Positions 728 to 20,700 of a DNA stretch of 49,780 bases are shown one piece after another. The stretch lies in the IMG/VR virus record IMGVR_UViG_3300029310_000016; one strand, given 5' to 3'. The translations under genes were made by a program, and so were the position numbers. This DNA comes from a virus. The stretch's first letter is position 1. Every line of letters begins with the position of its first letter. The notes beneath the pieces are model-generated. The model worked only from the letters and a program-made list of their open reading frames with translations, was not told the origin of the DNA and searched no databases.

Positions 728-900
728 AGTGCCTGTTCTCCTTTCTTCCGCAGAGCTTCATCAACCCTTTTCAATTCTGCATCGATGATGCGTCCGTTAT
801 TCTGCCATTCCTTCAGCACGTCCTGATTCTTTGTCTTGTTATACTCAAACGTCAGTGCTCGCTGTCGCTTGACAAGACTATAAAAGTCTCTTGTGTTCAT
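724..900 (-). CDS. Small hypothetical protein (58 aa, below the ORF-track cutoff)
   Basis: Own translation MNTRDFYSLVKRQRALTFEYNKTKNQDVLKEWQNNGRIIDAELKRVDEALRKKGEQAL. Its TGA overlaps the ATG of 368..727 (ATGA coupling). Confidence 0.5.
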   Translation of the reverse strand: MNTRDFYSLVKRQRALTFEYNKTKNQDVLKEWQNNGRIIDAELKRVDEALRKKGEQAL

Positions 901-944
901 ATTTTTCTCTGTATTAGTTTGTTTTACTTATCTTGCGTTATTGT

Positions 945-969
945 GAAAAATGAGGGGATTTCTCCCCTC
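945..969 (-). terminator. Rho-independent terminator (minus strand)
   Basis: Minus-strand RNA GAGGGGA-GAAA-UCCCCUC (7-bp GC-rich stem) followed by AUUUUU. Confidence 0.6.
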
Positions 970-1034
970 GGAGTTTGCAAATGCGAAATAACAAAAAGCA
1001 ACATTGTGATTATTTCCATTTGTTCTCTAATACT

Positions 1035-1119
1035 GCAGGACTTCCACCTGCTGGGCCATGCCCTTCACTGCCTTTTTAGTATTTCATCTTCCCTGTTTCT
1101 TCGCAGGACTTTCACCTGC
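1035..1119 (-). repeat. Two copies of a conserved hairpin motif, 68 nt apart
   Basis: Copy one is gcagg-acttcca-cctgc at 1035-1051 and copy two is gcagg-actttca-cctgc at 1103-1119. The flanks are also similar (ctgg..gcc(a/t)tgccc). Confidence 0.6.
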
Positions 1120-1208
1120 TGGAGAGCCTTGCCCCTCCGTGTCATTGTTTGCCTCTGATGAGGATGCCGCACTATTGCGGTCTTGCCGTTTTTCAGAAAC
1201 GTTTAAAC

Positions 1209-1255
1209 TGGTGAGGGCAGAAGGACTCGAACCTTCTCTTGTGCCATGCGCCCTC
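1209..1255 (-). ncRNA. tRNA-like minihelix (acceptor stem + T-arm + encoded CCA; no D or anticodon arm)
   Basis: Minus-strand RNA GAGGGCG-CAUGGCACAAGA-GAAGG-UUCGAGU-CCUUC-UGCCCUC-A-CCA. The acceptor helix has 7 bp (one G-U), the T-stem 5 bp, and the T-loop is canonical. Confidence 0.5.
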
Positions 1256-1260
1256 AAAAT

Positions 1261-1278
1261 CAGCGCACGCTTGCGCTG
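1261..1278 (-). terminator. GC-rich hairpin directly 5' of the minihelix (weak terminator or structural hairpin)
   Basis: CAGCGCA-AGCG-UGCGCUG, preceded by U8 and followed by only AUUUU on the minus strand. Confidence 0.3.
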
Positions 1279-1391
1279 AAAAAAAATGCTAACATCAATA
1301 ATTTACAACTATTGACACATCGTCAAGCTATGCGTCTCGCACTGCTTGAATGACATACATCTAAACTTAAACCTTAAATTTTACAGTTCAT

Positions 1392-1430
1392 AAAAAAAAT
1401 GCCGTTCTATGCGTCACGCACCGTTCGGCA
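1392..1430 (-). terminator. Rho-independent terminator after the 1462..1671 gene
   Basis: UGCCG...CGGCA stem enclosing a UGCG-UGA-CGCA inner hairpin, followed by U8 (plus-strand A8 at 1392-1399). Confidence 0.45.
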
Positions 1431-1461
1431 CGTCAACAAAAAAATATCTAACCTTAAAAGT

Positions 1462-1671
1462 TCACCATTCCCTGTCCTCGCAGCACTTCTCGCGGATGGC
1501 AAGGTCTTTCGCTTTCCTTTCAAAGATTGCCCTTGCATGAGGATCCGCTGCCTCTTCTGCCCACAGCATTACCGTATTCCAATCCGAGTAGTGTACAGAG
1601 TTTAATGCTGCCAGTCGTTCTGTGTCTGTTTTGAGCTTTATCAGCTCGAAGAAATCTATATGCATTGCCAT
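1462..1671 (-). CDS. Hypothetical protein
   Basis: 69-aa ORF in the early-operon orientation. Confidence 0.5.
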   Translation of the reverse strand: MAMHIDFFELIKLKTDTERLAALNSVHYSDWNTVMLWAEEAADPHARAIFERKAKDLAIREKCCEDREW

Positions 1672-1800
1672 AGTTTTGTATTTTTATGTTTATCGTTATT
1701 GCTTATGCGTTCTATCACCTTGTTTTTGCCCTCATTTTTGCCCATTGTTGCGATTTTGGCTCAGTTGTGCATATTTCCTTGTCTATGCATTTTTACCGCC

Positions 1801-1986
1801 TTAATGCGTAAATTTCAAGCCTTCCTCATTTGTCGGCATGGGAATCAGTCCTGATGGTTGGTAATTCTCGCACCTCTTGCTGCTGTACTCCACCCCTCGC
1901 TTCATCCTGTTGCATCTCAGGCCTTGGATGCTGTTGTAGGCGTGCCTGCATCCTCTGCATGCCGATTTCGTTGTCGTTGTGCTCAT
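1801..1986 (-). CDS. Small Cys-rich (zinc-ribbon-like) hypothetical protein
   Basis: 61 aa with CRGC...C...C. ATGA overlap with the stop of the upstream replication gene. Confidence 0.55.
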   Translation of the reverse strand: MSTTTTKSACRGCRHAYNSIQGLRCNRMKRGVEYSSKRCENYQPSGLIPMPTNEEGLKFTH

Positions 1987-2948
1987 GTTCCCTGCTTCTT
2001 CAACAGTTCAAAATACTTCACGCCTGTCATTCTCGCATTCGGGTCGAGGTTGTTTGCCTTGCACCAGGCTGTGTACGCTGCCATCTTCTCTTCATTGCTC
2101 AGCTCTGGCTTCTTGGGTTTGCTGGCCGCTTCTTCGTCTATGCGCTCAAAGTCGTGGCGAGTGTCCGATGGCTTGGCATCATCATAGTTGCCTTCTAAGA
2201 CTTTCGGGAAGTTGTTAGGCAAGACAACCCAGTCAAACGTGAATATCCTGCCGTTCTTGCCGCCTCCGTTCAGGAATCGGCTCTCGCTCGCCTTCTTCAG
2301 GCCTAACGCGAATCTGGTCTTGCCATACTCCCTCACTCTCGCTGCCACATGCTGCCGTCTCTTCGTGTTCTCGTTTATGCCTGCAATCTTTGCCATCGCC
2401 CTGTCCTGCACAAGCTGATTCCAGAATCTCGTGAGTGCCGCATAATCAACCTTCTTTCCGCCGCCTGCCGCATCGGCCGCAGCGTTGCCCTCGTCAGAGT
2501 GCAACACATCACCTTCTTTAGAAGGGGATGCAATATTATTATTATGACACTCATTTATAAGTGTCCCATTCTCATTCTCATTCCCATTCTCATTCTCATT
2601 CTCTGTATCGTTTGTATTCATTTGTATCACTTGAATACATTTGTATTCATTTGTATCACTTGAATCATTTTTACTATTACCCCACCTCTTATTTATAGCT
2701 TCTCTGCGTTTTTCTCTGATTCTCTCAAATTTATCCCTGTCTCGTTCAATCTTCTCTTTAATCAGTTCAAACGCCATGAGGATGAGCGGGTCTGCAGGCT
2801 CTTTGCCCTCGAAAACATACATGCAGATCGCATCGTAGATTTTCACTCTCACAGATTCATTCTGCTTGCTTATCATCTTGAACCAGTCCTCATAGAAGAC
2901 AAAGCTCTTCCGTTTCTCATCCTTGCCCATGCTTTCTGAAGTATACAT
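1983..2948 (-). CDS. Replication-associated protein (two domains joined by a low-complexity linker)
   Basis: The C-terminal part FTFDWVVLPNNFPKVLEGNYDD resembles the conserved phage replication-protein C-terminus (TIGR02220-like, from memory). It lies directly downstream of the helicase. The start is taken at MYTSESMGKDEK because the track start at 3080 lies inside the helicase gene. Confidence 0.5.
   Translation of the reverse strand: MYTSESMGKDEKRKSFVFYEDWFKMISKQNESVRVKIYDAICMYVFEGKEPADPLILMAFELIKEKIERDRDKFERIREKRREAINKRWGNSKNDSSDTNEYKCIQVIQMNTNDTENENENGNENENGTLINECHNNNIASPSKEGDVLHSDEGNAAADAAGGGKKVDYAALTRFWNQLVQDRAMAKIAGINENTKRRQHVAARVREYGKTRFALGLKKASESRFLNGGGKNGRIFTFDWVVLPNNFPKVLEGNYDDAKPSDTRHDFERIDEEAASKPKKPELSNEEKMAAYTAWCKANNLDPNARMTGVKYFELLKKQGT
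2567..2602. repeat. Hexanucleotide microsatellite, 6 units (cattct/cattcc), encoding ENENENGNENEN
   Basis: Read directly; in-frame low-complexity linker of the replication protein. Confidence 0.9.
2612..2665. repeat. Tandem direct repeat, exact 25-mer x2 with 29-nt period (iteron-like)
   Basis: ttgtattcatttgtatcacttgaat occurs at 2612-2636 and 2641-2665. The period is not a multiple of 3, so the two copies are read in different frames. Confidence 0.9.
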
Positions 2949-4086
2949 TTGTAAGTTGTTTGCCTTTGCTCTCCACCGCATACATGCGCGGACGCCTCTC
3001 TGTGATGACAAGATCCTCCACCATGCCAAATCTGTTGCAGTTGCCGCACAAGTCCACCAGCCACGCTCTTTTGCCCTCATAAGGGCGTATGCATCTGCCT
3101 ACCATCTGGTAATACAATGCCAGGCTCATTGTCGGCCTTGCAAGCACCACCGTTGCCAGCTCTGGATAGTCAAAGCCTGTTGTCAGCACTCCCACATTCG
3201 CCACGACATTTATCTTGCCTTCCTTGAAGCGTCTCAGTATCCGCTCCCTTTCAGCCTTCTTCGTGCCGCCTGTCACTATTGCCGCCAAGCCATCCAAAGA
3301 ATCCACTAATCGACTTGCTTCATCCGTATATTGGGTAAAGACAAGTATGTTTGTCCTGCCTGTAGCAAGAAGCCTCTTAACAACACCCAAGAGCCGTTCC
3401 GAGAAGCGCACTTTCTGATAATAAGCCTTCACGCTCGCTTCATCAAAGTCCATGCCTGTGCTGTTGAGCTTCAGCCGTCTCTGGTCTACCACATTGAGCG
3501 AGTAGTAGTCTATCGGAGCTAAGAATCCTCGCTCGCTGAGAGTCTTGATCTGAACGCAGTATATCATGCTGTCAAAAAACCTGTCCCTCACTCTTGTGAG
3601 AAACTTGAGCATGCTGCCATGAAGGAGGCTGCTCGTCAGCCTGTAAGGCGTTGCTGTCAGTCCGAGCACCCTGCATCCTGTGTATTGAATGAAATCTCTG
3701 TACATGCCTCCTTGAGGATTGACGTTGTGACATTCGTCAACAATGCAGTACCTGTAGCGCGCAAAGCTTGACTTACAGCCTTTGACGCTGCCAATCGTGG
3801 CAAACGTCACCATGCACATTTCCTTTCGCCCCACGCTTGCCGAGTACACTCCAGCTCCAACATTCTTGCTTACAGCACAGAATTTCTCGTAGTTCTGCTC
3901 CAGTATCTCCTTGTTAGGCTGAAAGATGACCATGGGTTCGCCCAGCTCTTTAGCAATGCTGGCTATGACCACCGACTTGCCTGAGCCTGTGGGGAGCACC
4001 ATGATTGCATTCCCTTTTCCTGTGCGGAAGAACCGCAACGCCCTGTTGACGGCCTCTTGCTGATAATCTCTTAGTTTGTATTCCAT
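2917..4086 (-). CDS. Superfamily-2 DEAD/DEAH-box DNA helicase
   Basis: VLPTGSGKS (Walker A), IVDECHN (DExH) and GLTATP (motif III). The start is taken at MEYKLRDYQ (ATG 4084-4086); the longer track ORF runs into the tRNA-like element. Confidence 0.85.
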   Translation of the reverse strand: MEYKLRDYQQEAVNRALRFFRTGKGNAIMVLPTGSGKSVVIASIAKELGEPMVIFQPNKEILEQNYEKFCAVSKNVGAGVYSASVGRKEMCMVTFATIGSVKGCKSSFARYRYCIVDECHNVNPQGGMYRDFIQYTGCRVLGLTATPYRLTSSLLHGSMLKFLTRVRDRFFDSMIYCVQIKTLSERGFLAPIDYYSLNVVDQRRLKLNSTGMDFDEASVKAYYQKVRFSERLLGVVKRLLATGRTNILVFTQYTDEASRLVDSLDGLAAIVTGGTKKAERERILRRFKEGKINVVANVGVLTTGFDYPELATVVLARPTMSLALYYQMVGRCIRPYEGKRAWLVDLCGNCNRFGMVEDLVITERRPRMYAVESKGKQLTNVYFRKHGQG

Positions 4087-4108
4087 GTTCCGCTGTTTTT
4101 TCCTTTTG

Positions 4109-4163
4109 TGAAGTGATGGGGATTCGAACCCCACCACCCCTTTGCAGTCTTGTCTTACACTTC
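4109..4163 (-). ncRNA. tRNA-like element (T-arm + 6/7 acceptor-type helix)
   Basis: Minus-strand RNA GAAGUGU-(23 nt)-UGGGG-UUCGAAU-CCCCA-UCACUUC-A. The 5' strand overlaps the last two codons and the stop of the upstream CDS. The element ends 22 nt before the helicase ATG. Confidence 0.4.
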
Positions 4164-4994
4164 AATGATAGTGATGGCTGGTGCTGCTTCCCTGATGCGC
4201 TCTATGACTTCATCTATCGCCTTGTCCGCAAGCTCTACCTTAAGATCTTCGGCTTGTGCGCTGATGAGAGTGCATCTGTATGTGGCAGGGTCAATCCACA
4301 CTTCGACCTCTATGCTCTGCTTCGGCAAGCCGTTGAATATTGGTATCGTGAGCGTGAAACTGTCTGGCAAGTTGCTCTGTACAATCTGCTGTCTGAGCTG
4401 CGTTATATTGCCTCTTCTGTCATCAAGATCCTTCATCTGGCTTGTGACATTCGCTTCGAAATTGCGCAGAAGGTTGACAAGGCTGTTGGCTTCTGCCACG
4501 CTGGCGAAGCATGTGCGGTTCATCTTGAAGAAGTCGGCCATGTCTTGCGGATTCTTGTAATCTCCGCTGTTGATGCCGAACTTGTCGTATTTCACACTTG
4601 TGCAAAGACGCCCTTCTATGGTGTTCCTGTAGTAGCTCGTCTCATTTTCTATCAGAACCACTGAGCCATTCTCCCTGTACACCATCACGTGGCTGTTGTT
4701 GCCATTTTCCTCCACTATCGATGATTCATCCGTATTCCCTCCGTTGTAGGCCTCCTTGTGATTGAGCCGCTGCTTGCTCTCGACCCACCTTGCAGGAGCA
4801 TCGATCGTGCCAGTCAGGTTGACCGCCTCTGGCTCTCGCATCGGCAGAGCCTCACCCTTGCGCAGCACGACCTGCACCGTTGCACCGCTTCCGTTCAGCT
4901 CCATGCTGACTGCTATCTTCTTGCTGATCTCTTCTGCGAGCCTCTTCTCAAAGATTTTCATTTCTTCTTTTTCCATTGTCGGTTGTTTTTCCAT
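4155..4994 (-). CDS. Hypothetical protein of the recombination module
   Basis: 279-aa ORF between the exonuclease/RecT block and the helicase. No motif recognised with confidence. Confidence 0.6.
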   Translation of the reverse strand: MEKQPTMEKEEMKIFEKRLAEEISKKIAVSMELNGSGATVQVVLRKGEALPMREPEAVNLTGTIDAPARWVESKQRLNHKEAYNGGNTDESSIVEENGNNSHVMVYRENGSVVLIENETSYYRNTIEGRLCTSVKYDKFGINSGDYKNPQDMADFFKMNRTCFASVAEANSLVNLLRNFEANVTSQMKDLDDRRGNITQLRQQIVQSNLPDSFTLTIPIFNGLPKQSIEVEVWIDPATYRCTLISAQAEDLKVELADKAIDEVIERIREAAPAITIIEV

Positions 4995-5008
4995 TGTCGG
5001 TTGTTTTT
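4973..5008. repeat. Exact 18-bp tandem duplication covering the start codon
   Basis: ccattgtcggttgttttt x2, which duplicates MEKQPT / the ATG context of 4155..4994. Confidence 0.9.
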
Positions 5009-5023
5009 TAAATGTTTCACTTA

Positions 5024-5449
5024 TTATCCGTTCTTTCTCAAGACTTCGAAGATGGTGCGCTGCGCTTCCTCCTTCGTAGCAGGGCGGCTGTTGACAAGAA
5101 CACCGTCAGCGTCATAATATCCGACCATCTTAGTGTCTCTGTCTATGACCTTGTAACATTCGCCCTTCACTGTTTCCATCTTGCACTTCCACTTCTCCAT
5201 CAGCGTTTTTCTGAGCTGCGTGAGATGAGCCGTCTCTTTTCTGTGCTGATCGAGATACGCCTTCTTATCTTCCTCTGCGTCATTGATGGTGTCTGTGAGT
5301 TCGCAGATTCTCTCTTTCACCGTCTCAAGCTCAGAAGGCGAGAGGTAATGGCTGTAGCTTATGTTCTCTACAGCATCGCAGTTGGCTTCAAGGTACGATT
5401 TCCTTGCTTCCTCATCCTGCGGAATTCCGATAAATACTTTGTCTAACAT
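5024..5449 (-). CDS. Hypothetical protein
   Basis: 141-aa ORF, tightly packed with its neighbours. Confidence 0.6.
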   Translation of the reverse strand: MLDKVFIGIPQDEEARKSYLEANCDAVENISYSHYLSPSELETVKERICELTDTINDAEEDKKAYLDQHRKETAHLTQLRKTLMEKWKCKMETVKGECYKVIDRDTKMVGYYDADGVLVNSRPATKEEAQRTIFEVLRKNG

Positions 5450-5456
5450 ATTACTT

Positions 5457-6461
5457 TTACTTGATTAAAAATCTTCTGCTTCCAGCCGTAGCCTTCATGT
5501 ATTTCTCCGCTTCTTCTGGGTGGTCTTTCTGAAAGGCTTTGGCATCAAATTTAACACTGTCCTTCGCTGCCTTCCATGTGGCGATGTTGATGATCTGCGT
5601 GCCTTGCTGCGCTGTGACGGCCTCCGCATCGCCCATGGCTGCTTTGACCGCATCCTCATACATGGCTCGTTCTCTTGCAAGTTCCGTCTCTTCCTCCCTT
5701 AGACGCTTGATCTCTCCGACAGCATCCACGATTGACATCTGGTTGTTTTCGCCCGAGCCTATCGCAATGTTTGTCCATCCGTCTATCGTCTTGCCTTCTG
5801 TGTGCCTTGGGTACTTTGCGATAACATCCGCAGGAGTGCGAAGTTCAGGCTCTATGCCCTTCCCTATATTGACCGTCCAGAAATGCTGCGCCTCTTCTGC
5901 CATCCATTCGCACATGGCTTCGTCATATTCGATGTCCTTGTAGCCGAATTTTCGGTGCGTGAGGTTTATCCAGGCAAGGCTTCCTCTTTTGTACCCTGTG
6001 ACATGCATGAGCCACTGGACCTGGCAGAACCACGACATCGGCAAGTCCTTCTCGTCAACGTCAATAGATGTTGTCTTGCACTCAAGGATGCAGCGGTTCT
6101 GCTCGTTGTGCTTCTCCCCTTCGTTGTAATAGATTCTGTCTGGCGATGCGCGGAAGTAATCATGCTCAGGATGCACATACAGCCATTCTTCTTGCGAAGC
6201 CTTGATGATATGCCTTCCTGTCTCAATCTTCCACCGCTGCGCCACAGCGTCCTCCATCAGATGCCCCATGAGCATCGCTTCGTTTTCCTCCTTTGGCGCG
6301 TCCATGCCCATCTTCCTGCGCCACAGCTGGTACGGTGTTTCAAACTTGTTCAAGCCAAGCAGCGTGCCTATCTCAGATGAGCCGATGCCCTTGCTTCTGC
6401 ATGCCAGCCATTCATCGTGATTGGCCGTGCGAATCAGCTTGTGTCTTGTGGTTGTTTTCAT
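5457..6461 (-). CDS. YqaJ-type viral recombinase exonuclease (lambda Exo-like, PD-(D/E)XK)
   Basis: N-terminal GIGSSEIGTLLGLNKFETPYQLWRRKMG is the typical YqaJ signature, plus ECK in a PD-(D/E)XK-like context. Adjacent to RecT. Confidence 0.85.
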   Translation of the reverse strand: MKTTTRHKLIRTANHDEWLACRSKGIGSSEIGTLLGLNKFETPYQLWRRKMGMDAPKEENEAMLMGHLMEDAVAQRWKIETGRHIIKASQEEWLYVHPEHDYFRASPDRIYYNEGEKHNEQNRCILECKTTSIDVDEKDLPMSWFCQVQWLMHVTGYKRGSLAWINLTHRKFGYKDIEYDEAMCEWMAEEAQHFWTVNIGKGIEPELRTPADVIAKYPRHTEGKTIDGWTNIAIGSGENNQMSIVDAVGEIKRLREEETELARERAMYEDAVKAAMGDAEAVTAQQGTQIINIATWKAAKDSVKFDAKAFQKDHPEEAEKYMKATAGSRRFLIK

Positions 6462-6479
6462 GTTCCTGTTCTTTTATTG

Positions 6480-7199
6480 CTATTCTTCTGCGCCTTCTTG
6501 CGGTGCATCTTCTTCATTCTTCTTGTGTCCGTTGCGCGCCATGGCCGCCTTCACCTTGTCTGCAGGATCTTCAATTTTTTTAAAGTCCGCATCGTCTATA
6601 ACATCTGGCTGAGCCGCCTGCGCCTCTGCATAACTGATGTCTTCTTCTTCGTCCGCTGTGCGGAGACCCATGCTGATTTCTGGCGCATAAGTGCGCTGCC
6701 AGAAGGCCGCAGCCCTGTATCTCAGCATCTGGTCTGGCATCGTCACCCACTTGCTGCCAGCCTTGGTGCTCCAGCCTTCACGCTGCGCCATGTCGAGCGA
6801 CACCCATGAGCCTTCAAGCCTCTCGTTGTGATCCTTGTCGCTGCGCTCGTAGGCATAGCACCTGCATGCCCAGCTGGCCTTTCCTTCTTCGCCCTTGAAC
6901 TCATAGCGGAGCGGTGTGAAGCGGCCGCATGAATTGATGGTCGCAATGAGAAATTTGCTGCTCCATGCAGGATTGCCATGCACCACATAGAGGTTCTGCA
7001 TCACCATGAGCGGATTGCTGTTAAGGCGTTTCGCTATGTCCAATGCGATGATAACGTTCCCGATGTTCTTGTCACCCTGATACGCCTGTGGCACGATGGA
7101 TGAGCTTGTGTATACCTTCGCCTGTCGCTGTGCGAGATTAAAGGCTTTCTCTTCTTGCTCAACAAGTGTCAGAGCTGTGGTGTTCTTTCCTTCTTCCAT
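6480..7199 (-). CDS. recT: RecT-family single-strand annealing protein
   Basis: 239 aa with a RecT-like core (PLMVMQNLYVVHGNPAWSSKFL ... MLRYRAAAFWQRTYAPE). Paired with the YqaJ exonuclease downstream. Confidence 0.8.
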   Translation of the reverse strand: MEEGKNTTALTLVEQEEKAFNLAQRQAKVYTSSSIVPQAYQGDKNIGNVIIALDIAKRLNSNPLMVMQNLYVVHGNPAWSSKFLIATINSCGRFTPLRYEFKGEEGKASWACRCYAYERSDKDHNERLEGSWVSLDMAQREGWSTKAGSKWVTMPDQMLRYRAAAFWQRTYAPEISMGLRTADEEEDISYAEAQAAQPDVIDDADFKKIEDPADKVKAAMARNGHKKNEEDAPQEGAEE

Positions 7200-7767
7200 G
7201 TTGATAATGTTTTAATGATTATTGAATCGTGATTTCCAAATTACGCCAAGTCGCGCGCCTTGGCTTGCTTTGGTCTCGTCTGCTTCCGAGATGCCAGCAC
7301 CCTTTTATCGACTTGTGCGTGCGTGCATGTCGAGCTGTCAATGTTGCCATCATCCTCCGTTATTAGCTCGTTCGAGTCCAGCCGTGCAGGTGTTCATTGT
7401 CGGGTTAGCCTGTCCACCGTAGCTGAGTTTTACATCATGCGCAAGATGCCTTTTTTAACGTGTCTGTTCACGATCCGCGTCTTGGCTCATCACTAACTTT
7501 GTTTTTAACGTGGAGTGTCCCTGATTGCCATCGCGCCCGAACTCTCGATGTCTCCACAAGAATATTCTTTGTGCCTGTGCGTGTTCCGATGTTTACGCTT
7601 ACGCTCTCGCCAGAGCACAGGCTTCATAACTTAAAAAACAAGCCAGACAATCTCTCGATTGCCGCCTCCGTCCAACCTTCACGGCCAACCTTCAGCTTCA
7701 GCATGAAATAATAATAATGGGTTATTCGGAAAGTAGTATATTTTATGACCTGCTAAACTTTCACCGC

Positions 7768-7953
7768 TTATTTATCCTCTTTGTCCCAGATGAATCTGTC
7801 ACTCAGATAGTACACCATCAGCAGACTCGCAAAACCTATAAGAAAGCGGCATCCGTCAATGTTCCCATCCTGCTTTTCCATCGAAAGAACGGACAGAACC
7901 CCCACAAGGGAAAGTGATATCACAACTGCGTAAAGCAGAGCCTTCTTTTTCAT
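7768..7953 (-). CDS. Small membrane protein (2 TM)
   Basis: MKKKALLYAVVISLSLVGVLSVL...FLIGFASLLMVYYL. The start is chosen at the ATG that forms an ATGA overlap with the upstream stop; the track start is 7995. Confidence 0.55.
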   Translation of the reverse strand: MKKKALLYAVVISLSLVGVLSVLSMEKQDGNIDGCRFLIGFASLLMVYYLSDRFIWDKEDK

Positions 7954-8174
7954 TTCCCTGTCCTCCTGCTCTTTTTCGTTAGTATTATCCCGCATTTCAT
8001 CAACACGTTGCGCACTCCTGCTGTTGTCATCTTGTGCTTGTCTGCAATAGACACCATCCTTCTGTTTGCGCTCGCTTCTGGTGCAAGCTTGCTCAGTTCC
8101 ATGTAGTCTCCTACTATCTGCTGCCAGCGAGCGTCTCGCTGCTTCTGTCTTGTTGTTCTCAGATCTATTGTCAT
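7950..8174 (-). CDS. Hypothetical small basic protein
   Basis: 74-aa ORF, 30 nt downstream of the 146-nt tRNA-like element. Confidence 0.55.
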   Translation of the reverse strand: MTIDLRTTRQKQRDARWQQIVGDYMELSKLAPEASANRRMVSIADKHKMTTAGVRNVLMKCGIILTKKSRRTGK

Positions 8175-8204
8175 GATTTCGTGTAGTTATTAAATTAAAA
8201 ATTG

Positions 8205-8350
8205 TGGACTGCAGAGGACTCGAACCTCAGTTCAATGGCTGACTGAACGGACGCACGCCTGCGCCTCTAAGAAGTTGGTCTCTCCCCATCTTCTGTGAGT
8301 GTCTTTCTTTTTGTTCCCCAGTCGCTCCGCTCTTTCCGACTGTGCAGTCC
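8205..8350 (-). ncRNA. 146-nt tRNA-like structured element (perfect 7-bp acceptor-type helix + T-arm enclosing three hairpins)
   Basis: 5' GGACUGC (8350-8344) pairs with GCAGUCC (8212-8206). T-arm GAGG-UUCGAGU-CCUC. Internal hairpins are AGUCG/CGACU, GGCGCA/UGCGUC and GUUCA/UGAAC. It fills almost the whole intergenic gap. Confidence 0.45.
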
Positions 8351-8357
8351 TTGTCTC

Positions 8358-8645
8358 CTATTCCCTGTCCATCAATGCCTTCACATCGCTATACCTGTAC
8401 ATTGCCCTGCCTCCTATGTAGACAGGCTTGAGATAGCCAACCTTTGCCCAGCGCACGATGGTGGATGTGGTCTTGCGCACCATCCTGCACACTTCCGCTC
8501 TGGTGAGCAAGGCCTGTTCTTCTCTTGCCGACTGCTGCTCCCTTCTCTTAGCCAGCTCTATTGCAAACTCTATCGCAAAGGCCTTCAAGTCTCTCGCCTT
8601 GATGGTCACCGTTATATCCCTGTCTATCAATTCCTGAAAATTCAT
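8358..8645 (-). CDS. MerR/excisionase-type HTH DNA-binding protein (HTH_17-like)
   Basis: LLTRAEVCRMVRKTTSTIVRWAKVGYLKPVYIGGRAMYRYSDVKAL matches the excisionase/AlpA-like HTH pattern. Confidence 0.7.
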   Translation of the reverse strand: MNFQELIDRDITVTIKARDLKAFAIEFAIELAKRREQQSAREEQALLTRAEVCRMVRKTTSTIVRWAKVGYLKPVYIGGRAMYRYSDVKALMDRE

Positions 8646-8665
8646 AAGTCATTTTTTTAAGTTCG

Positions 8666-8740
8666 TGGAGGTCTGCGGAGTCGAACCGCTTTCAGTTTAG
8701 AATGCCTGGAACATTCAGCAGCTGCCGTTGCCTTCCCTCC
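8666..8740 (-). tRNA. Divergent tRNA-like cloverleaf with Trp-type anticodon loop (CCA); possibly a degenerate or pseudo-tRNA
   Basis: GGAGGGA AG GCA-ACGGCAGC-UGC U GAAUG-UUCCAGG-CAUUC UAAACUGAA (A)GCGG-UUCGACU-CCGC(A) GACCUCC A. The anticodon arm is perfect, the T-stem has 4 bp, the acceptor pairs 5/7, the variable region is 9 nt, and no CCA is encoded. Confidence 0.35.
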
Positions 8741-8813
8741 TTGTGGCATGCTATGCTCTCGCACCGCATGCCTGATAAATAACACATTATGTCACATTAA
8801 AGCATGTGATATT

Positions 8814-9236
8814 TCAATTCAGCTCTTGCAGTATAAGATCCTTGTCTTCTTGAAGCAGCTCATAATCGTTCTCTAACTTCTTGCGGAGGTAAGTCCTCGC
8901 TCCCATCTCTTCGATGCATATCTTGCGGAGGTTTGCATCCTCGTTCTCGCATGCGCTCTCAAACAGAGCGTCCACCACCTTTGCGTGTTTCTCTTTGATG
9001 GTCTCGATGGCAAGCTTGGCAGCTTTCAGCTGTAGTCCCAATTCAAACTCTCTGGCTTTATTCTCCTTGCCCATCTCTAATATGAAATTCCTCGCTTTTT
9101 TCCCTGCGGATACCCACATATCCGCAAATTCTTGTTTAGACATGTTCCCGACTGAGATGTAGGCAGATTCGATTTCTTTATAGTCCTCATCAGAATACTG
9201 TGTGCCTGTGAGTCTTTCAAATTCTTGTTTCAGCAT
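8814..9236 (-). CDS. Hypothetical protein, first gene of the leftward early operon
   Basis: The start is taken at MLKQEFERLTG (ATG 9234-9236). The upstream part of the track ORF is AT-rich operator DNA. Confidence 0.55.
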   Translation of the reverse strand: MLKQEFERLTGTQYSDEDYKEIESAYISVGNMSKQEFADMWVSAGKKARNFILEMGKENKAREFELGLQLKAAKLAIETIKEKHAKVVDALFESACENEDANLRKICIEEMGARTYLRKKLENDYELLQEDKDLILQELN

Positions 9237-9488
9237 AAAACTCCGCTTGACCGTGATGCGGTAGGGCTGGTAGCGTTTTAATTGAGTGTCTAAAAATTTT
9301 GTTATAACGATTTTTATAACTACTTTTGCAAGTGTTTTATAAATCGCTTTTAATTTCAGTTGCAAAGTTATAACTTTTTTGGTTATCATCCAAATAATTT
9401 TATAATTATTTTTAGTCATTTTTGATACCATATTTGTAAATAATTGGTTATCATAATGTTGAATTATAACTTTTTTAGGTTAGTTTAT
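9237..9488. promoter_or_regulatory. Divergent immunity/switch region with operator-like repeats
   Basis: TTATAAC at 9302, 9314, 9368 and 9464 (the first as the palindrome GTTATAAC). TTATAAC-TTTTTT-(A)GGTTA at 9368-9386 and 9464-9482. GGTTATCAT at 9381 and 9446. Confidence 0.6.
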
Positions 9489-9875
9489 ATGGAAAAAGTT
9501 GCTATTGCTCTCCAGGAGTGGGCAAAAGACAAAAATTACAAACAGCGAGAATTGGCTAATATACTCGGTGTTGCCCAGCCTTACATTGGGCGTATGATGA
9601 AAGGCAAACAAGAATTCGGTAAGAATACCGCTCGCAAATGGGCCGACACCTTCGGCATGTCCTACACATTCCTTCTCACAGGCGAAGGCTCTCTCTTTGA
9701 CCAATCCTCAGATGTGGCCGAACAGGCAACAGAGGACGTTGCGTCAGGTCTTGATCCTGAATCGGCAGAGTATTGGCGAAAGAAGTATGAAGAATGTCTT
9801 GCAGACCTTTATAAAGAACGTGCCGTATCAGAAGGCCTCCGCATCGCTTTAGGTGCTGTGCGTGACGCAAAATGA
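9489..9875 (+). CDS. CI-like HTH repressor (XRE/phage CI family)
   Basis: QRELANILGVAQPYIGRMMKGKQ is an HTH, and FLLTGEGSLF is typical of Bacteroidota phage CI-type repressors. The start is at MEKVAIAL. Confidence 0.75.
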   Translation: MEKVAIALQEWAKDKNYKQRELANILGVAQPYIGRMMKGKQEFGKNTARKWADTFGMSYTFLLTGEGSLFDQSSDVAEQATEDVASGLDPESAEYWRKKYEECLADLYKERAVSEGLRIALGAVRDAK

Positions 9876-9988
9876 AAAAATGGCACAGGAAAGCAAAGAG
9901 CATCGCATGCGGCAATGCACTGACAACAACATATAATAATTATAATAAAGGTGACATCAAAAAAAGAAACCTCCAACACGCATCTACA

Positions 9989-10450
9989 ATGACAGAACAC
10001 ATAGAAGAACGCATCAAGCAGATCATCGCTTACAAATGCAAAGGCAACACCTCGGCATTCGCTCGCCTGATGGAATGGTCAACGCCTTATGCCTTTCAAA
10101 CGGTCAGAGGGAAGAGCCTTGGCCTCTCCCCTATCATCACCATCGTCAGCAAGCTCCCCGAAATAGATGCGCGCTGGCTGCTCACAGGCGAAGGCACAAT
10201 GCTTCAGGCGGACGAGAGCACGCCACATGTGCCATCTGGCGCACCTTCGCTGTCTTACATGTTCGACATGGAGAAGTACATACCATTCATGACATCAGAA
10301 GAGCAGCAACAGCTTATCAGCGGACGCAAATTCGACATCATGCGTATCGACTCCTGGGAACGGAAACGGCAAGAGCGCAACGAGCGCATTGATGCCATCT
10401 TCTCCGCTGCCTACTCCAGGCAAGGCATGACGTATAATGGCGAAAAATAA
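9989..10450 (+). CDS. Second CI-type HTH regulator
   Basis: GNTSAFARLMEWSTPYAFQTVRGKS ... ARWLLTGEGTML. The start is taken at MTEHIEERIK; the track start is 9872. Confidence 0.65.
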   Translation: MTEHIEERIKQIIAYKCKGNTSAFARLMEWSTPYAFQTVRGKSLGLSPIITIVSKLPEIDARWLLTGEGTMLQADESTPHVPSGAPSLSYMFDMEKYIPFMTSEEQQQLISGRKFDIMRIDSWERKRQERNERIDAIFSAAYSRQGMTYNGEK

Positions 10451-10567: not shown

Positions 10568-12013
10568 CTAATCGATTAAATCGACAACGCCCTTCAGCAC
10601 ATCATCCGTTATCGCCCTGTATCGGCTGAACGCCTTTGATCCTTCCACGTGTCCGCTCATCCTGCCTATGAGGTTAGGGTCTTGCACCTTCTCGTACACG
10701 TTCCCGATGAATGTGCGCCTTGCCATGTGGCTGCTCGCCACTTCCCATATAGGGCGTGACTCATTCTCGCCTGTGACGCTGTTGCGCACGATAACAGGAC
10801 GGTCTATCCCTGCAAGCTTCAGCATGTCCTTAATCGCCATATTGTACTTAGTAGTGCTAACAAATGGGAAGAGACGCCCTCCGCTGTCTACTCCCCTGTA
10901 TTTTTCCACAAGCGCAAGTGCTCTCTCTGCAAGCGGCACCCTTGGCTTTACTTGCGCTTGTTCATCCCTTGTCTTATGCGGCACATACTCCAGCACTCCA
11001 TCTGTGATGTTCGCCTCTGTCATTCTTGTCAAATCGCTCACCCTGCATCCAACAAGGCACTGAAAGATGAAGATGTCACGCTGCACCTCCAGCTGCGGCC
11101 GTGATGGAAATCTTGCCTCAGCAAGCTTGTTGCGCTCGTCTATCGTCAGATAGAATGGTATGCCGTAAACCTCTGCGCCTATTGTCACCCCCTCAAACGG
11201 ATTGCACTCCGTGATCTTTCGCCTTCTCATCCAGTTGTACAGCACCTTCAGCTTCTTCAATTTCCCAATCACCGTGTTTTGCCCTCTGTCATTCACATCT
11301 TCCCGATGATGTCCGTCTCTCGGTATCAGCTCCTGCGGATAGCTGCTCATTATATCCTCAAAAAGCTCTGGCTGCTCCTTGCGCAGCATCCGCTCCTGTG
11401 ACAGATAGCTGCGCAAGTCCATCACATCGTCTGCATTCAAGCTGTCTATATCCAGTATGAATTCATGACTGTCCATAGCCTTGCGGTACTCTGCCCATCT
11501 GTATACATCCCTCATGAGCACTCTGTAATGCGCAGCTCGCCTTTTGCTTATATCCTCATCCTGCAGAAAGGTCTCACAGAATCCCCACAACGTGCGCCCG
11601 TTCTCCTGCCTCAGTCCTGCAAGCGCACACGTCACAGCTCTGCGTGTGATGTCCGCAACAGCCAAGTTCCGCGTCTTCTCTATCACCTGTGCCAGAACGC
11701 CTTTCCTTGCGCAAAAGTCCACACCCATGACGGACGCAATCATCTGCGCCCTCATTGCAATATCTTCGATGTCCCTTTTCGCTTTCTCCGCCAACTCCAC
11801 ATCTCGCATGTTCAGCCTTCCACGTTTCGGCACAACGATGCTGCCTATCTCATTCCCGGAACTTGTTCCTGTAGTCTTCCACATGCACGACCTTACTTTC
11901 ACATCGGTCTTGATGCGTATGTGCTTCAATCTTGTGAGCCGCAGCAGCAGATAAACCGCTCTGTTTCCGTCTGCGTCTTCTTTCCTGCTTATTATGTACG
12001 AGTATGATGCCAT
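10568..12013 (-). CDS. int: Tyrosine recombinase / phage integrase (Bacteroidota type)
   Basis: GCRVSDLTRM (catalytic R), HMARRTF (HxxR) and GHVEGSKAFSRY (H...Y). The start is at MASYSYIISRK. Confidence 0.9.
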   Translation of the reverse strand: MASYSYIISRKEDADGNRAVYLLLRLTRLKHIRIKTDVKVRSCMWKTTGTSSGNEIGSIVVPKRGRLNMRDVELAEKAKRDIEDIAMRAQMIASVMGVDFCARKGVLAQVIEKTRNLAVADITRRAVTCALAGLRQENGRTLWGFCETFLQDEDISKRRAAHYRVLMRDVYRWAEYRKAMDSHEFILDIDSLNADDVMDLRSYLSQERMLRKEQPELFEDIMSSYPQELIPRDGHHREDVNDRGQNTVIGKLKKLKVLYNWMRRRKITECNPFEGVTIGAEVYGIPFYLTIDERNKLAEARFPSRPQLEVQRDIFIFQCLVGCRVSDLTRMTEANITDGVLEYVPHKTRDEQAQVKPRVPLAERALALVEKYRGVDSGGRLFPFVSTTKYNMAIKDMLKLAGIDRPVIVRNSVTGENESRPIWEVASSHMARRTFIGNVYEKVQDPNLIGRMSGHVEGSKAFSRYRAITDDVLKGVVDLID

Positions 12014-12070
12014 ATATGTTTTGTTTACGTTTCGCAAAAATAGCGAATGCTGCCGCAAAAGAAAAAAATA

Positions 12071-17798: not shown

Positions 17799-20700
17799 TT
17801 ATTTAGTGATAGTCCATCCCTTTGCCAGAGCCTCTTCGATTTGCGTCTGCGTGATGTGCGCAAAAGTGTTGGCAGAGAAATACAAAGTGCGAGAGAGGTT
17901 GAGCGAAGTGAGGTCTGGAAGACATGAGAGCACATCGGCAATCTCATCATCGTTGACCCACGAGTCGAGGTCTTTGAACACGCTGTTGAAAGCATTAACC
18001 CTCTTGTAGAAATTGAAGAAAGGAGCACCGAGCTTTAGGGATTCAATCTTTCGGCATTCCTTAAAGATGTCGTTCATTGCATACGTAGGACCAAAGTTAG
18101 ATGTGTCCAAATCGCCCAAGTCAACATATTTAAGGCCGACACACCATTTGAATGTTTCGGCCAAGTTATCAATGGTGGTGGCCTCCATCCCTCGGAAATT
18201 AACTCTCTCCAATGCGTAGCAATCATAAAACATTCTGTACATGGAGTTAGTTCCAGGTTTGGAAATTTTAGCCTTTGAGAAATCCACACTCTTCAACGCC
18301 TTGCAGCGGAGGAACGCTTCGTCCATAACACCAACAATAGTCATGCCATCGAAGCAGACAGATTCGAGAGATGAGCAATCCACGAACGCTCGTAGAATTT
18401 TCACAGACTTGATGTTGCAAAGCTCGTTGAAAGACTTGATGGCTGTGTTGCCCTTGAACCAATCTGTGATGTCCGTCAATTCTCTAAAATCATCCTCGCC
18501 AACCACATTACCCTTATTGCCGACCTTCTTGCTAAGAATCACACGCTCCACCTCCGCATCGGCAAAACGCTGTCGCTGCACCGCATCGGCAGAGACAGCC
18601 ACCTCGATGCTGCTGACCGAAGACGGAGTGGTCTTGCTTCTCACCGTCACAGTGCCAGACGCAGCTTCGCCATGCGCATTAGCATAGACCCATCCGTTAT
18701 CAGACACGCCAATGCCGCCATCTGCCGAATATTCCACTTGCGTGTATCTCGCATTGTCGGTGTTGGACTCAAGCGCAGCGGAGACAAACTGATTGCCGAG
18801 CGACAGGTTGACAGCAGAGATGAGCGGATAAGCGCATTTGAACGTCCTCACCGCCTTCACTCCCTCGACCTGTGCCGACACAGCTGTGAATGTGACATCG
18901 TGCAGCGAGCCAGCGTTGGCCGCATTCATCGTGAGCATCTTGATGAACCGAGTTTCAGTGTCGGCCACAGAGACGCCATCCGAACCCGACTTTGACAGCG
19001 TGAAGTATTCCTTGCGAGTAGGCTCAGGGTCGTAGCCGATGGCAAGCGGAGCTGTGTCGAACACGAACGTCTCGCCATCCTTCCCCAAATATTCATTGGG
19101 GATGGACAGCGACAGGGCATTCAGCTCGTCCGTGGCATAATCGACACCGTAAATGTCGTAGTCGATATAGCGAAGGGAATAATCGTCAAACGTTTTGCCT
19201 TCCTCTTTGGCAAGCTGCCGCATGTATGATTGCCAATGCGAGCCACCAATAGCATAGATGCGCCCAGCATTCACAGACCAATTCTCAGCCTTTTTATAAT
19301 CGTCCATAAAGCCAGAAGGAACATAGATGACTGCACCTTGATTTATATTTTCAGAATTTAGATTCTCCGCTTTTGGAACGACAAAAGACCGCATGATCAA
19401 ATTAGAGTGACAGCACAAGGCTCTTGAGTCGGTCAATTCATGCACACCGATGTCAAGAATCCTCAATTCCTTATTGCCGTAAACCAGATGTCGGCCATAC
19501 GCACCAATATGGGGAGAGCCGATTTTTCTCACATTCGGAAAAAACACCGCCCTGCATAAGGCATTTTGCGACACGCATGCCTCACCAGCTTCTTCAACAT
19601 GTGGCGCAAATATGACCTTTCCCAATGTGCCAAGAGACGTGCCAAGAGAATAGCCTTCCGCAATGATTTTCACAGCACCTGTGTTAATCATGCCCTCCAC
19701 AGATGAATTAAGCCGCGTTATTCTTGTAGAGCTATACTGATTACCAATAAAACCCATGGGGAACACAGTCAGGCATTCAGGCGTGCTCAGATGCAAAAGG
19801 GTGCAATTCTGGAAAGTGACAGAATCGACCTTTGACACAGACGTCAGGGCAAACTCGTCAAAATATTTCACCGACTTATTATTCCTAAACCATTCCTTCA
19901 CATCCTTCACCGCAGCCAGTTCGTCCAAAGTGAGATTAGCGTTCTCGTCACCCTTCACGTTCTTGCCGAGCACCTTGCGCACCTCGTCATCCTTAAATCT
20001 GACGTAGTAGTTCAGTATATTCAGCACAAGCGCAGGGAAGGTGCTGCGCAACCTGTCTACATCATCCTTATAAGCGGCATCGGCAGTTATTGAACCCTGT
20101 ATCGCTGGCAATGAGTAATCTGGCATAAGCGTGCCGACATCTTCATTGTATGTGACATTAGCGTAACCCTTGCCTTCTTCGCTATTGACGTACAGATTAG
20201 CTGCAATCTTAGCGAGTGCCGATAAGTCTGTCGTGTCACCTTGAATATTCATATCCCATGACAGCGACAAGAATTGCAGCTTATTCCCTGCAATCGCAAG
20301 CACCTTCTTAAGAATATCCATAGGGTTGATGCCTCTGCATCGGTTAATGTACAGCGTATCTATATTTCCGTACCCTGCTATCTGTGCGCCTTCTTCTTTC
20401 AGCTTGTTTAATGAGTGCAGAAACAAAGTCGTAACACTCGAAGGAAGAGACAGCTTTTCAAGCTTAGAGCCAACAGGAAGCATGAGACGTGAAATGTTCG
20501 TGCCTCTAAAGTATGTCTCACGCAATCTTGGACACTGCTGCAAATCTATATTGCCACTAAGCGAAGACACGTTGCTCGCATCCACCACCTCCACGGCATC
20601 GCCAGCCACTGCCAGCGTTGCGGCATTGAATCCGTTAGCCGACACGTCAGCTGTGTTCGCATCGCCAACCTTGACGCTGCGCAACCTCTTGCTTCGCACA

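Follow-up and report, generated by a model that had tools for sequence, protein, structure and literature searches.

The window analysed here is the whole 49,780-nucleotide (nt) stretch of viral DNA held as IMG/VR record IMGVR_UViG_3300029310_000016. The virus is a temperate gut phage of the Bacteroidales. Its early-arm genes, all on the minus strand, form a typical temperate-phage early arm, and in the gaps between the recombination and replication genes of this arm we found four elements resembling transfer RNA (tRNA), E1 to E4, each on the operon strand. All four are derived from phage tRNA genes. Their anticodon arm has been lost, replaced or relaxed, and mostly no working one is left; the parts retained are a 12-base-pair (bp) coaxial helix of acceptor and T arm, the T loop, G1, the discriminator and a C74-N-A76 tail. 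The elements, their parts and the genes around them (with ORF for open reading frame) are as follows.

1209-1255, minus strand: E1, a 47-nt tRNA-like minihelix with a 7-bp acceptor, a T arm, a discriminator and an encoded CCA
1249-1255, minus strand: E1 acceptor 5' strand, GAGGGCG
1237-1248, minus strand: E1 linker of 12 nt
1220-1236, minus strand: E1 T arm, GAAGG-UUCGAGU-CCUUC
1213-1219, minus strand: E1 acceptor 3' strand, UGCCCUC
1209-1212, minus strand: E1 discriminator A (1212) and encoded CCA (1209-1211)
4106-4163, minus strand: E2, a minihelix of 35-58 nt
4157-4163, minus strand: first candidate 5' strand of E2, GAAGUGU (6 of 7 paired; 23-nt linker; touches a stop codon)
4134-4140, minus strand: second candidate 5' strand of E2, the adjacent GGGGUGG (continuous 12-bp hairpin)
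4117-4133, minus strand: E2 T arm, UGGGG-UUCGAAU-CCCCA
4106-4116, minus strand: E2 acceptor 3' strand UCACUUC (4110-4116), then A (4109) and CAA (4106-4108)
8202-8350, minus strand: E3, a 149-nt element of acceptor, T arm and multi-hairpin insert
8343-8350 and 8206-8213, minus strand: E3 acceptor, GGACUGC(A) and (U)GCAGUCC
8214-8228, minus strand: E3 T arm, GAGG-UUCGAGU-CCUC, followed by A (8205) and CAA (8202-8204)
8663-8740, minus strand: E4, a degenerate tRNA-Trp-like cloverleaf
8734-8740 and 8667-8673, minus strand: E4 acceptor, GGAGGGA and GACCUCC (5 of 7 paired)
about 8698-8714, minus strand: E4 anticodon arm, GAAUG-UUCCAGG-CAUUC
8674-8690, minus strand: E4 T arm, (A)GCGG-UUCGACU-CCGC(A), followed by A (8666) and CGA (8663-8665)
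1983-2948, minus strand: DUF6291/DnaD-like initiator
2917-4086, minus strand: superfamily-2 helicase (ATG 4084-4086)
4155-4994, minus strand: DUF2303-like gene (stop codon 4155-4157)
5457-6461, minus strand: YqaJ/RecE-like exonuclease
6480-7199, minus strand: RecT
early arm, minus strand: two small ORFs, one of them an ORF of 74 amino acids (aa) with its ATG at 8172-8174
8358-8645, minus strand: HTH_17 excisionase-like gene (Pfam HTH_17, PHROG excisionase; ATG 8643-8645)
10568-12058: integrase gene

The elements are marked by the 10-mer GGANTCGAAC, which occurs on the plus strand at 1223, 4120, 8216 and 8677 and inverted, on the minus strand, at 7370, just as a preliminary description of this DNA had reported. 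These five matches compare with a mean of 0.24 in dinucleotide-preserving shuffles, none of 100 of which reached five, and all of them lie outside minus-strand ORFs, in gaps between early-arm genes. Read on the minus (operon) strand, the four plus-strand matches are the T arms of E1 to E4. The T stems GAAGG/CCUUC, UGGGG/CCCCA, GAGG/CCUC and GCGG/CCGC, the loops UUCGAGU, UUCGAAU and UUCGACU and the acceptor pairings given earlier (7/7 with one G-U, 6/7, 7/7 Watson-Crick and 5/7) were all recovered on that strand. In each element the T arm is followed by the 7-nt acceptor 3' strand and then by an A-C-N-A tail, ACCA in E1, ACAA in E2 and E3 and ACGA in E4, a feature absent from the earlier list; the discriminator is A in all four. 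A relaxed scan of the whole window found no more members in the 40 kb outside the early arm.

The likeness to tRNA is seen only in part by the standard programs. With default settings ARAGORN found no tRNA or transfer-messenger RNA (tmRNA) in the window, and no Rfam model matched it at gathering thresholds. E1 aligned to the Rfam tRNA model (RF00005) with 20.8 bits against a gathering score of 29, through its acceptor and T arm only; E2 to E4 had no Rfam tRNA match at E<=10, and ARAGORN called E4 as tRNA-Trp(cca) c[8665,8740] only at the relaxed setting -ps90. In geometry, E1 and E2 (with either 5' strand) have the canonical 7-bp acceptor and 5-bp T stem, a UUCRANY loop and G53-C61, E3 has 8 and 4 bp, and E4 has 5 of 7 acceptor pairs and a 4-bp T stem. 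None has a regular cloverleaf: E1 and E2 hold only a linker, E3 holds a 113-nt insert, and an anticodon-arm-like hairpin is found only in E4.

Megablast and blastn searches of the early arm against 50,697 phage records returned distant RecT matches only, and the helicase relatives in IMG/VR were at most 51% identical, G+C-rich and uninformative. Close relatives (L007 and L093-L099, about 94-97% nucleotide identity) were obtained through helicase and excisionase homologues in a large protein collection; more distant ones are L008 (68% helicase identity) and L010 and L011 (63%). A scan of GTDB genomes added 80 loci, mostly prophages, in Bacteroides, Phocaeicola, Parabacteroides, Alistipes, Prevotella/Segatella, Muribaculaceae and others. 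The closest cultured phage is Bacteroides phage BS-TP2 (L136), with 54% helicase identity. The close relatives carry the same four elements. L008 has one element after its DUF2303-like gene and five in tandem within a 1.2-kb ORF-free stretch (2600-3700, spaced by 220-280 nt between the excisionase-like gene and RecT, where no ORF was originally predicted); four or five occur in each of B. xylanisolvens XB1A (L054) and L046; and in BS-TP2 there are elements of this kind without annotation, one of which, tRNA-Leu-like, follows the DUF2303 gene. An element of this sort lies at about 19550-19660 of the BS-TP2 record PQ571275.1; the host of this phage in culture is B. salyersiae BG8. The BS-TP2 paper, which reports the phage in 33.5% of 930 gut viromes, does not mention tRNA. 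As a separate observation, the relatives contain Rfam RNAs that the window lacks, namely abiF RNA, DUF2693-FD RNA and a FopS-family small RNA (sites at L010 507-543; L033 4112-4160, L074 1540-1588 and L031 4361-4409; and L074 13777-13850).

Family counts were made on 72 related Bacteroidota loci (1.24 Mb), by scans that find only elements still having a T loop. ARAGORN called 12 tRNAs on the operon strand of these loci, in the same places and with the same N73-C-A-A trailer, and left 53 T arms uncalled. An acceptor partner (7 bp, at least 6 of them Watson-Crick, within 260 nt) was present for 33 of the 53, against 4.3 expected with permuted 3' strands, and 33 of the 53 also had an N-C-N-A tail (background 6.2%). 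The opposite strand served as control: among its 40 uncalled T arms, 6 had an acceptor partner and 8 an N-C-N-A tail. The four outer T-stem positions were all paired in 53 of 116 operon-strand GUUCRANYC motifs, compared to 2 of 116 in a slid control. When 31 elements were spliced and aligned, 98.4% of cells were paired, and both sides had changed in 11 of the 12 helix pairs, a figure that is circular because the set was chosen for pairing; the permuted-strand control is the unbiased test. At the ends of the family members we found G at position 1 in 33/44, a pyrimidine at -1 in 36/44, C74 in 40/44 and A76 in 35/44. These results support the preliminary view that real tRNA-like elements, with an acceptor helix and a T arm, lie on the sense strand of the operon. 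It should be mentioned separately that the operon-strand phage tRNAs and tRNA-like elements of the 72 loci share the N73-C-A-A trailer instead of an encoded CCA, and that this trailer is not consistent in the few host tRNA genes of the same loci.

At the 5' end, many of the uncalled elements have a class II D arm of the tRNA-Leu type (UGGCGGAAUUGGUAGACGC); at the 3' end, their T arm and acceptor are normal. The tRNA-Leu-like ones enclose a middle of 50-130 nt that forms no anticodon arm, and others, 47-60 nt long, are without an anticodon arm altogether. ARAGORN describes the insert-bearing elements solely by means of 'introns' of 9-158 nt, and some insert-bearing elements of relatives pass the Rfam tRNA gathering score. 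The relatives present a spectrum from canonical tRNA to minihelix, and the window elements therefore stand at its reduced end. The motif family proposed in the preliminary description was thus right in that the elements are real, and has to be corrected in that they are no free-standing new motif and derive from phage tRNA genes.

Recurrence at one place can be followed over longer distances at the junction downstream of the DUF2303-like gene, where E2 lies. A DUF2303-like homologue could be detected, at 26-43% amino-acid identity, in 13 relatives, and in 8 of the 13 a well-formed tRNA-like element follows its stop codon within about 330 nt; L008 provides a weaker ninth. These junction elements differ in acceptor sequence and in inner length, which lies between 34 and 132 nt. 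tRNA-Leu-like elements of this junction are listed below.

L026, 941-1047: tRNA-Leu-like element of the same junction
L031, 9235-9348: tRNA-Leu-like element of the same junction
L033, 9357-9511: tRNA-Leu-like element of the same junction
L136 (BS-TP2), 9748-9858: tRNA-Leu-like element of the same junction

Among L026, L031 and L033 the element shows 86-89% identity over its first 27 nt and 96% over its last 28 nt, and the middles, of 52, 59 and 100 nt, are only 41-49% identical, that is, effectively unalignable. The gene downstream is 82-87% identical among the three, and the 300 nt upstream are 93% identical between L031 and L033. The inner segment of these elements looks like a replaced cassette. 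We also noted that the BS-TP2 element carries yet another middle, and that a conserved CCCGGAAAGACGGG hairpin precedes the elements of all four phages.

In E1, the acceptor GAGGGCG/UGCCCUC forms 7 of 7 pairs with one G-U. Its 5' GGGCGCAU and 23 of the 27 bases at its 3' end match a tRNA-Lys(UUU) gene in L053, of which it is without the D arm, the anticodon arm and the variable region; E1 therefore looks like a tRNA-Lys gene with the middle deleted. The element is identical in L007, and L094 and L095 differ in the discriminator only (A to G). Downstream of E1, in a 300-nt non-coding stretch, we observed two further T-arm-shaped hairpins on the minus strand, GCAGG-UGGAAGU-CCUGC and GCAGG-UGAAAGU-CCUGC (1035-1051 and 1103-1119). 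Both are conserved in L007, L094 and L095. They have the same stem as the T arm of the relatives' tRNA-Leu-like elements but no T loop, and their Rfam matches are weak and at chance level.

For E2 two structures compete. The upstream strand GAAGUGU (4157-4163) touches the DUF2303-like stop codon at 4155-4157, in agreement with the earlier remark that one 5' strand lies at a stop codon, and it is favoured by the same-junction element of L010, whose upstream strand pairs 7/7 by Watson-Crick and whose 22-nt linker can be aligned. The minimum-free-energy fold is the uninterrupted 12-bp hairpin GGGGUGGUGGGG/CCCCAUCACUUC (-22.6 kcal/mol, z = -3.1), favoured by a G-to-A change at 4134 in three relatives that turns a G.U into an A-U pair. 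In six relatives the T arm and the 3' strand of E2 are invariant, and the part between the stop codon and the T stem has five variable columns, four within 4141-4157 and the fifth at 4134.

The same junction holds a simple G+C-rich hairpin and no tRNA-like element in the following relatives.

L016, about 9240-9300: simple G+C-rich hairpin at the E2 junction
L018, about 8500-8550: simple G+C-rich hairpin at the E2 junction
L027, about 9940-9990: simple G+C-rich hairpin at the E2 junction
L028, about 9940-10000: simple G+C-rich hairpin at the E2 junction

The tRNA shape is therefore not required there, and any stable structure may suffice. Since these hairpins stand where the window and eight relatives have a tRNA-like element, and since E2 itself can be folded as a plain 12-bp hairpin, it could be supposed that all the elements are generic intercistronic stem-loops which block 3' exonucleases or insulate leaders, the tRNA shape being incidental and the tRNA enzymes uninvolved. 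We regard this as improbable, because a generic hairpin has no need for the invariant T loop, the 7+5 bp geometry, G1 and the N-C-A-A tail that are found throughout the family.

The acceptor of E3 (GGACUGC/GCAGUCC) is 7/7 Watson-Crick and can be extended to 8 bp, leaving a 4-bp T stem, and in the minimum-free-energy fold this 8-bp acceptor closes beside the T arm (-52.3 kcal/mol, z = -2.3). Within the 113-nt interior there are four hairpins, one of them D-arm-like (CAGUCG...CGACUG), and a purine-rich single strand. E3 is 97-99% identical to its counterparts in relatives; the single acceptor change is A-U to G.U, and the interior has 3 variable columns in the alignment of six genomes. Two elements of L008, B and E, share with E3 the 5' hairpin and the purine-rich motif GCGAC-AGGAAAG. 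Alignment of E3-type elements with MAFFT and RNAalifold recovered the T arm alone, because the inserts differ in length. The inner pattern GTCGNNAAGNNNGNAGCGACNGG had 36 matches in IMG/VR, none with a T-loop motif (GTTCRANNC) within about 150 nt; they look unrelated and are mostly G+C-rich. A gapped E3/L008 pattern gave one real tRNA-like element (L190) among the 120 metagenome matches listed, and a GACAGGGAA-like regular expression was too loose for use. A CGAC-AGGG motif resembles the 5' region of tmRNA; mimicry of the tmRNA tRNA-like domain was tried as a candidate and rejected, there being no G3:U70 and no model match.

E4 is the only element with an anticodon arm, and the possibility that these are decoding tRNAs of unusual shape has to be judged on it: E4 would be a working tRNA-Trp (CCA), or in L007 an opal-reading UCA variant. 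Its anticodon stem of 5 bp closes a 7-nt loop, UUCCAGG, with U33 and purine 37, ARAGORN accepts it at -ps90, and the two failures in its acceptor are a tandem G.A/A.G, which can be helical. E4 has, on the other side, no default ARAGORN call and no Rfam tRNA match at E<=10, a weak D arm with a 3-bp stem and an over-long variable region of 9-10 nt. In six relatives 4 of the 17 columns of its anticodon arm vary, with one stem mismatch and with the anticodon included, which is CCA in the window (8706) and most relatives and UCA in L007 (3300 region), a phage 96% identical overall to the window; the acceptor, D region and T arm have 0 variable columns of 50. The long ORFs of the window read through with the standard code, and E1 to E3 are without any anticodon arm. 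Decoding is therefore very improbable for the set.

A six-genome alignment, which comprises close relatives only, about 5% diverged and not independent samples, showed variation in 2 of the 124 columns of the acceptor strands and T arms of E1 to E4, both changes being A-U to G.U and so preserving the pair. Variation was 18.7% at third codon positions of the flanking genes (Fisher p = 1e-8 versus these cores), 8.9% over all coding columns (p = 0.002) and 7.4% in the other intergenic DNA of the early arm (p = 0.014). These figures indicate that the minihelix is under purifying selection. Together with the recurrence in the family they suggest tRNA-derived elements with a selected minihelix rather than excision debris. 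The statement that the stems covary and that the family is conserved in related phages is supported by the pairing in the relatives, the conservation of the cores and the synteny.

If the elements were non-functional relics, they would be ordinary tRNA genes of the early operon that decay through deletions and insertions. The state of several elements agrees with this: E1 resembles a tRNA-Lys gene from which an internal part was deleted, two acceptor pairs of E4 are mismatched, its D arm is weak and its anticodon arm drifts, the default tRNA finders reject all four, and every stage from canonical tRNA to minihelix is seen in the relatives. However, in all four GGUUCGANUCC is perfect and the helix paired, variation in the cores is far below that at synonymous and other intergenic sites, with both changes preserving the pairing, the same junction still has elements where protein identity has fallen to 26-43%, and the middles of the relatives' elements are replaced with the ends kept, a pattern that random decay would not give. 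The conservation pattern contradicts the relic explanation, which we consider unlikely, if still a contender.

The leaders and the candidate promoter are listed below.

4087-4105, minus strand: A-rich leader between E2 and the helicase ATG (sequence; 22 nt from discriminator to ATG)
8175-8201, minus strand: A/U-rich leader between E3 and the ATG of the 74-aa ORF (sequence; 30 nt from discriminator to ATG)
8646-8662, minus strand: A-rich leader between E4 and the ATG of the HTH_17 excisionase-like gene (sequence; 20 nt from discriminator to ATG)
9363-9370, minus strand: TAACTTTG, a candidate early promoter upstream of all four elements (found by a regular-expression scan)

The leader lengths of 22, 30 and 20 nt are those given earlier, so that three of the four elements are followed by an A/U-rich leader and a start codon within 20-30 nt. 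In a strict scan of the operon strand from 800 to 9700, TAACTTTG was the sole intergenic TAnnTTTG, which we take to be the consensus of the Bacteroides -7 promoter box. No such box lies beside E1 to E4 in that scan, which fits co-transcription with the early operon; strand, spacing and the absence of a promoter box together suggest that the elements are co-transcribed. Since the -7 box lies inside the annotated start of a 205-aa ORF, the true start of this ORF is probably further downstream. We also noted that 9240-9480, between the 205-aa ORF and an HTH repressor-like gene, is an AT-rich divergent control region with repeated TTATAAC/GTTATCA motifs, which are candidate operators.

The minimal substrate for RNase P, RNase Z and the CCA-adding enzyme consists of the helix of acceptor and T arm with its T loop, and E1 to E4 keep the substrate-like features, that is, G1, the discriminator, C74 and the T-loop geometry. 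Like t-elements and mascRNA, they are minihelices placed at cistron boundaries on the sense strand. The elements most likely act as cutting or stability signals in the early mRNA. More specifically, the retained enzyme substrate and the signs of co-transcription lead us to favour, tentatively and at slightly less than even chances, a model in which the tRNA-derived elements act as RNase P and RNase Z cut signals that split the long early mRNA. Host RNase P would cut at the 5' end of each element, and RNase Z or a 3' trimming pathway would cut after the discriminator. The early mRNA would in this way be split into units, the cistron that follows would begin with an A/U-rich leader, short and unstructured, and the excised elements would be released as small RNAs of tRNA-like form, about 35-149 nt in length. 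No RNA-processing or tRNA-related enzyme was found among the 20 window proteins scanned against Pfam, so that host enzymes would have to act.

Several points weigh against this model. Cleavage is something we infer, and it would leave the upstream mRNA, after the RNase P cut, without a protective 3' structure. The base at -1 is A, not a pyrimidine, in E2 to E4. E1 punctuates nothing obvious, since a terminator-like hairpin with a short U tract precedes it and about 300 nt of non-coding DNA follow, the next ATG-ORF of at least 50 aa being 311 nt away. The start-codon-proximal placement emphasised in the preliminary description is common but not universal in the family, as a crude ORF caller placed only 15 of 42 members no more than 40 nt from the next ATG-ORF of at least 50 aa, and some members form ORF-free tandem arrays. 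The E2 junction has a plain G+C-rich hairpin in four or five relatives. As for selection, the aligned genomes are close and not independent, and E3 lies within a generally low-diversity block shared with the neighbouring ORF.

The tandem arrays, five elements in L008 and several in L054 and L046, resemble RNA genes more than punctuation, and they bring in the possibility that the elements are trans-acting tRNA mimics, released as anticodon-less RNAs that serve as decoys or sponges or as scaffolds displaying a variable insert. Tied to this are the selection on the part of the tRNA that such proteins read, the anticodon region being free to vary, and the E3 interior with its only 3 variable columns; tRNA-targeting defence nucleases, nucleotidyltransferase toxins, the CCA-adding enzyme and synthetases could be the targets. 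But the elements are not linked to any defence or anti-defence gene, the 20 window proteins scanned include no tRNA-related enzyme, no antisense target of at least 11 nt beyond chance was found in the phage, and the low diversity of E3 is shared with the neighbouring ORF. The decoy idea is without specific support, and we rate a role of this kind as rather improbable. A broader version, that temperate Bacteroidales phages, prevalent cultured ones included, keep non-decoding tRNA-scaffold RNAs that act in trans, is distinctly unlikely. In it, the 'top half' of acceptor, D and T parts may be selected and the anticodon side deleted or swapped for rapidly replaced inserts, and the released RNAs may be, beyond cut sites, decoys for acceptor-reading immune effectors or tRNA-scaffolded effectors.

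The replaced middles between conserved ends could also stem from recombination at the DNA level, and the integrases of this phage group target tRNA genes. If the elements were DNA-level sites, they would be 3' ends of host tRNAs copied as attachment sites, or handles by which modules are exchanged through recombination. Opposite-strand tRNA 3' fragments do lie 7-9 kb upstream of the helicase in L014, L016, L017 and L031, and it is these that are the real tRNA-fragment attachment sites of the relatives. A phage attachment site (attP) would be a single integrase-adjacent site with the tRNA 3' part only. E1 to E4 instead occupy four separate gaps at distances of 1.8-9.4 kb from the integrase gene, and the operon strand carries all of them. 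An attP copy would not have the matching 5' strand that is present in every element, and the compensatory changes show that pairing is maintained at the RNA level. Number, position, strand and the presence of 5' strands thus exclude attP or excision debris, and an explanation by DNA-level sites is hardly credible.

The inverted match at 7370-7379, by comparison with the four members, has a T stem of 4/5 with an internal C.C, only G-U-rich partners and no A-C-N-A (N-C-N-A) tail; it is probably a chance match and no family member. It sits in a conserved 568-nt gene-free stretch between a 75-aa ORF and RecT (7200-7767), which with 28 variable columns of 565 in six relatives is more conserved than the flanking genes. 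The stretch contains a terminator-like hairpin (7646-7663, minus strand) and two ACACGTTAAAAA repeats near 7461 and 7513. Folding of 7200-7645, its 446-nt conserved part, gave no signal (z = -0.83). The gap could be an origin or a regulatory region. Elsewhere in the window, an exact 18-bp tandem duplication of CCATTGTCGGTTGTTTTT spans the start codon of the DUF2303-like gene (4973-5008, plus strand) and yields two in-frame ATGs six codons apart, and a TET-associated glycosyltransferase (TAGT) gene (44429-46437, minus strand) adjoins a radical-SAM gene, a neighbourhood that suggests DNA hypermodification by this phage.

In our full-text literature searches we found no description of such an element set in Bacteroidales phages. 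Standard tRNA finders and Rfam miss most of the elements, with 33 well-formed tRNA-like elements uncalled against 12 called tRNAs on the same strand of the 72 loci, and this annotation gap extends to BS-TP2, a cultured and prevalent Bacteroides phage. If the elements are cut by host RNase P and RNase Z, they would be a bacterial-virus counterpart of organellar tRNA punctuation and would explain how hosts without reliance on Shine-Dalgarno sites come to have long early operons divided; acting in trans, they would instead represent a new kind of tRNA mimic in phages. Because a phage-host pair is in culture, both possibilities are open to direct test.

Among known systems, tRNA genes co-transcribed with mRNAs, as in the T4 tRNA cluster and the E. 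coli tufB operon, are alike in strand, in their place within an operon and in canonical acceptor/T-arm geometry. They differ in that E1 to E3 have no anticodon arm and E4 is sub-threshold; since none of the four is called by default ARAGORN or passes the Rfam gathering score, decoding is unlikely. The small phage RNAs C4 of P1 and P7, CI of P4 and species 1 and 2 of T4 are matured by host tRNA-processing enzymes, and C4 and CI act as antisense RNAs on defined targets. E1 to E4, in contrast, have no Rfam C4 match, and a search of all four for antisense targets in the phage window gave one 11-nt match, at chance level.

In tmRNA and in YrlA, too, the acceptor and T arm are combined with an insert of non-tRNA sequence where the anticodon arm would be; the RNA ends of YrlA are not at the acceptor. 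Unlike tmRNA, the window elements have no tag reading frame, no G3:U70 and no tmRNA match with ARAGORN or Rfam (E<=10); the third acceptor pairs are G-C, A-U, A-U and A-U with the pairings first described, and G.U if E2 forms the hairpin. Unlike YrlA, they have no Rfam YrlA match, and no TROVE/Ro (Rsr) protein is among the 20 window proteins scanned, a subset of the ORFs. YrlA, a bacterial Y RNA, is a tRNA mimic, and its genes also occur in phages (PMC4201824). Allo-tRNAs with 8/4 acceptor/T-stem geometry have been reported in bacteria and phages (PMC5389517). E3 is like them in its 8-bp acceptor and 4-bp T stem and unlike them in its 113-nt multi-hairpin insert, whereas allo-tRNAs keep the anticodon arm and decode.

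Mitochondrial tRNAs and plant t-elements lie between cistrons and define mRNA ends through RNase P and RNase Z, and plant t-elements are acceptor/T-arm-like structures without a full cloverleaf. The window elements are similarly partial-tRNA structures between cistrons; those systems are organellar with mapped ends, whereas here a phage in a bacterium is concerned, known from sequence alone. The mascRNA/MEN-beta family (RF01684) is alike in that a tRNA-like structure within a long transcript is cut by RNase P and RNase Z. E2 aligned weakly to its model (20.5 bits against a gathering score of 42.5) through the bare acceptor/T-arm helix, and the family is eukaryotic and without homology to the elements. 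In mechanism, mitochondrial tRNA punctuation, plant t-elements and mascRNA-type RNAs would be the closest analogues of E1 to E4; in origin, the four go back to phage tRNA genes.

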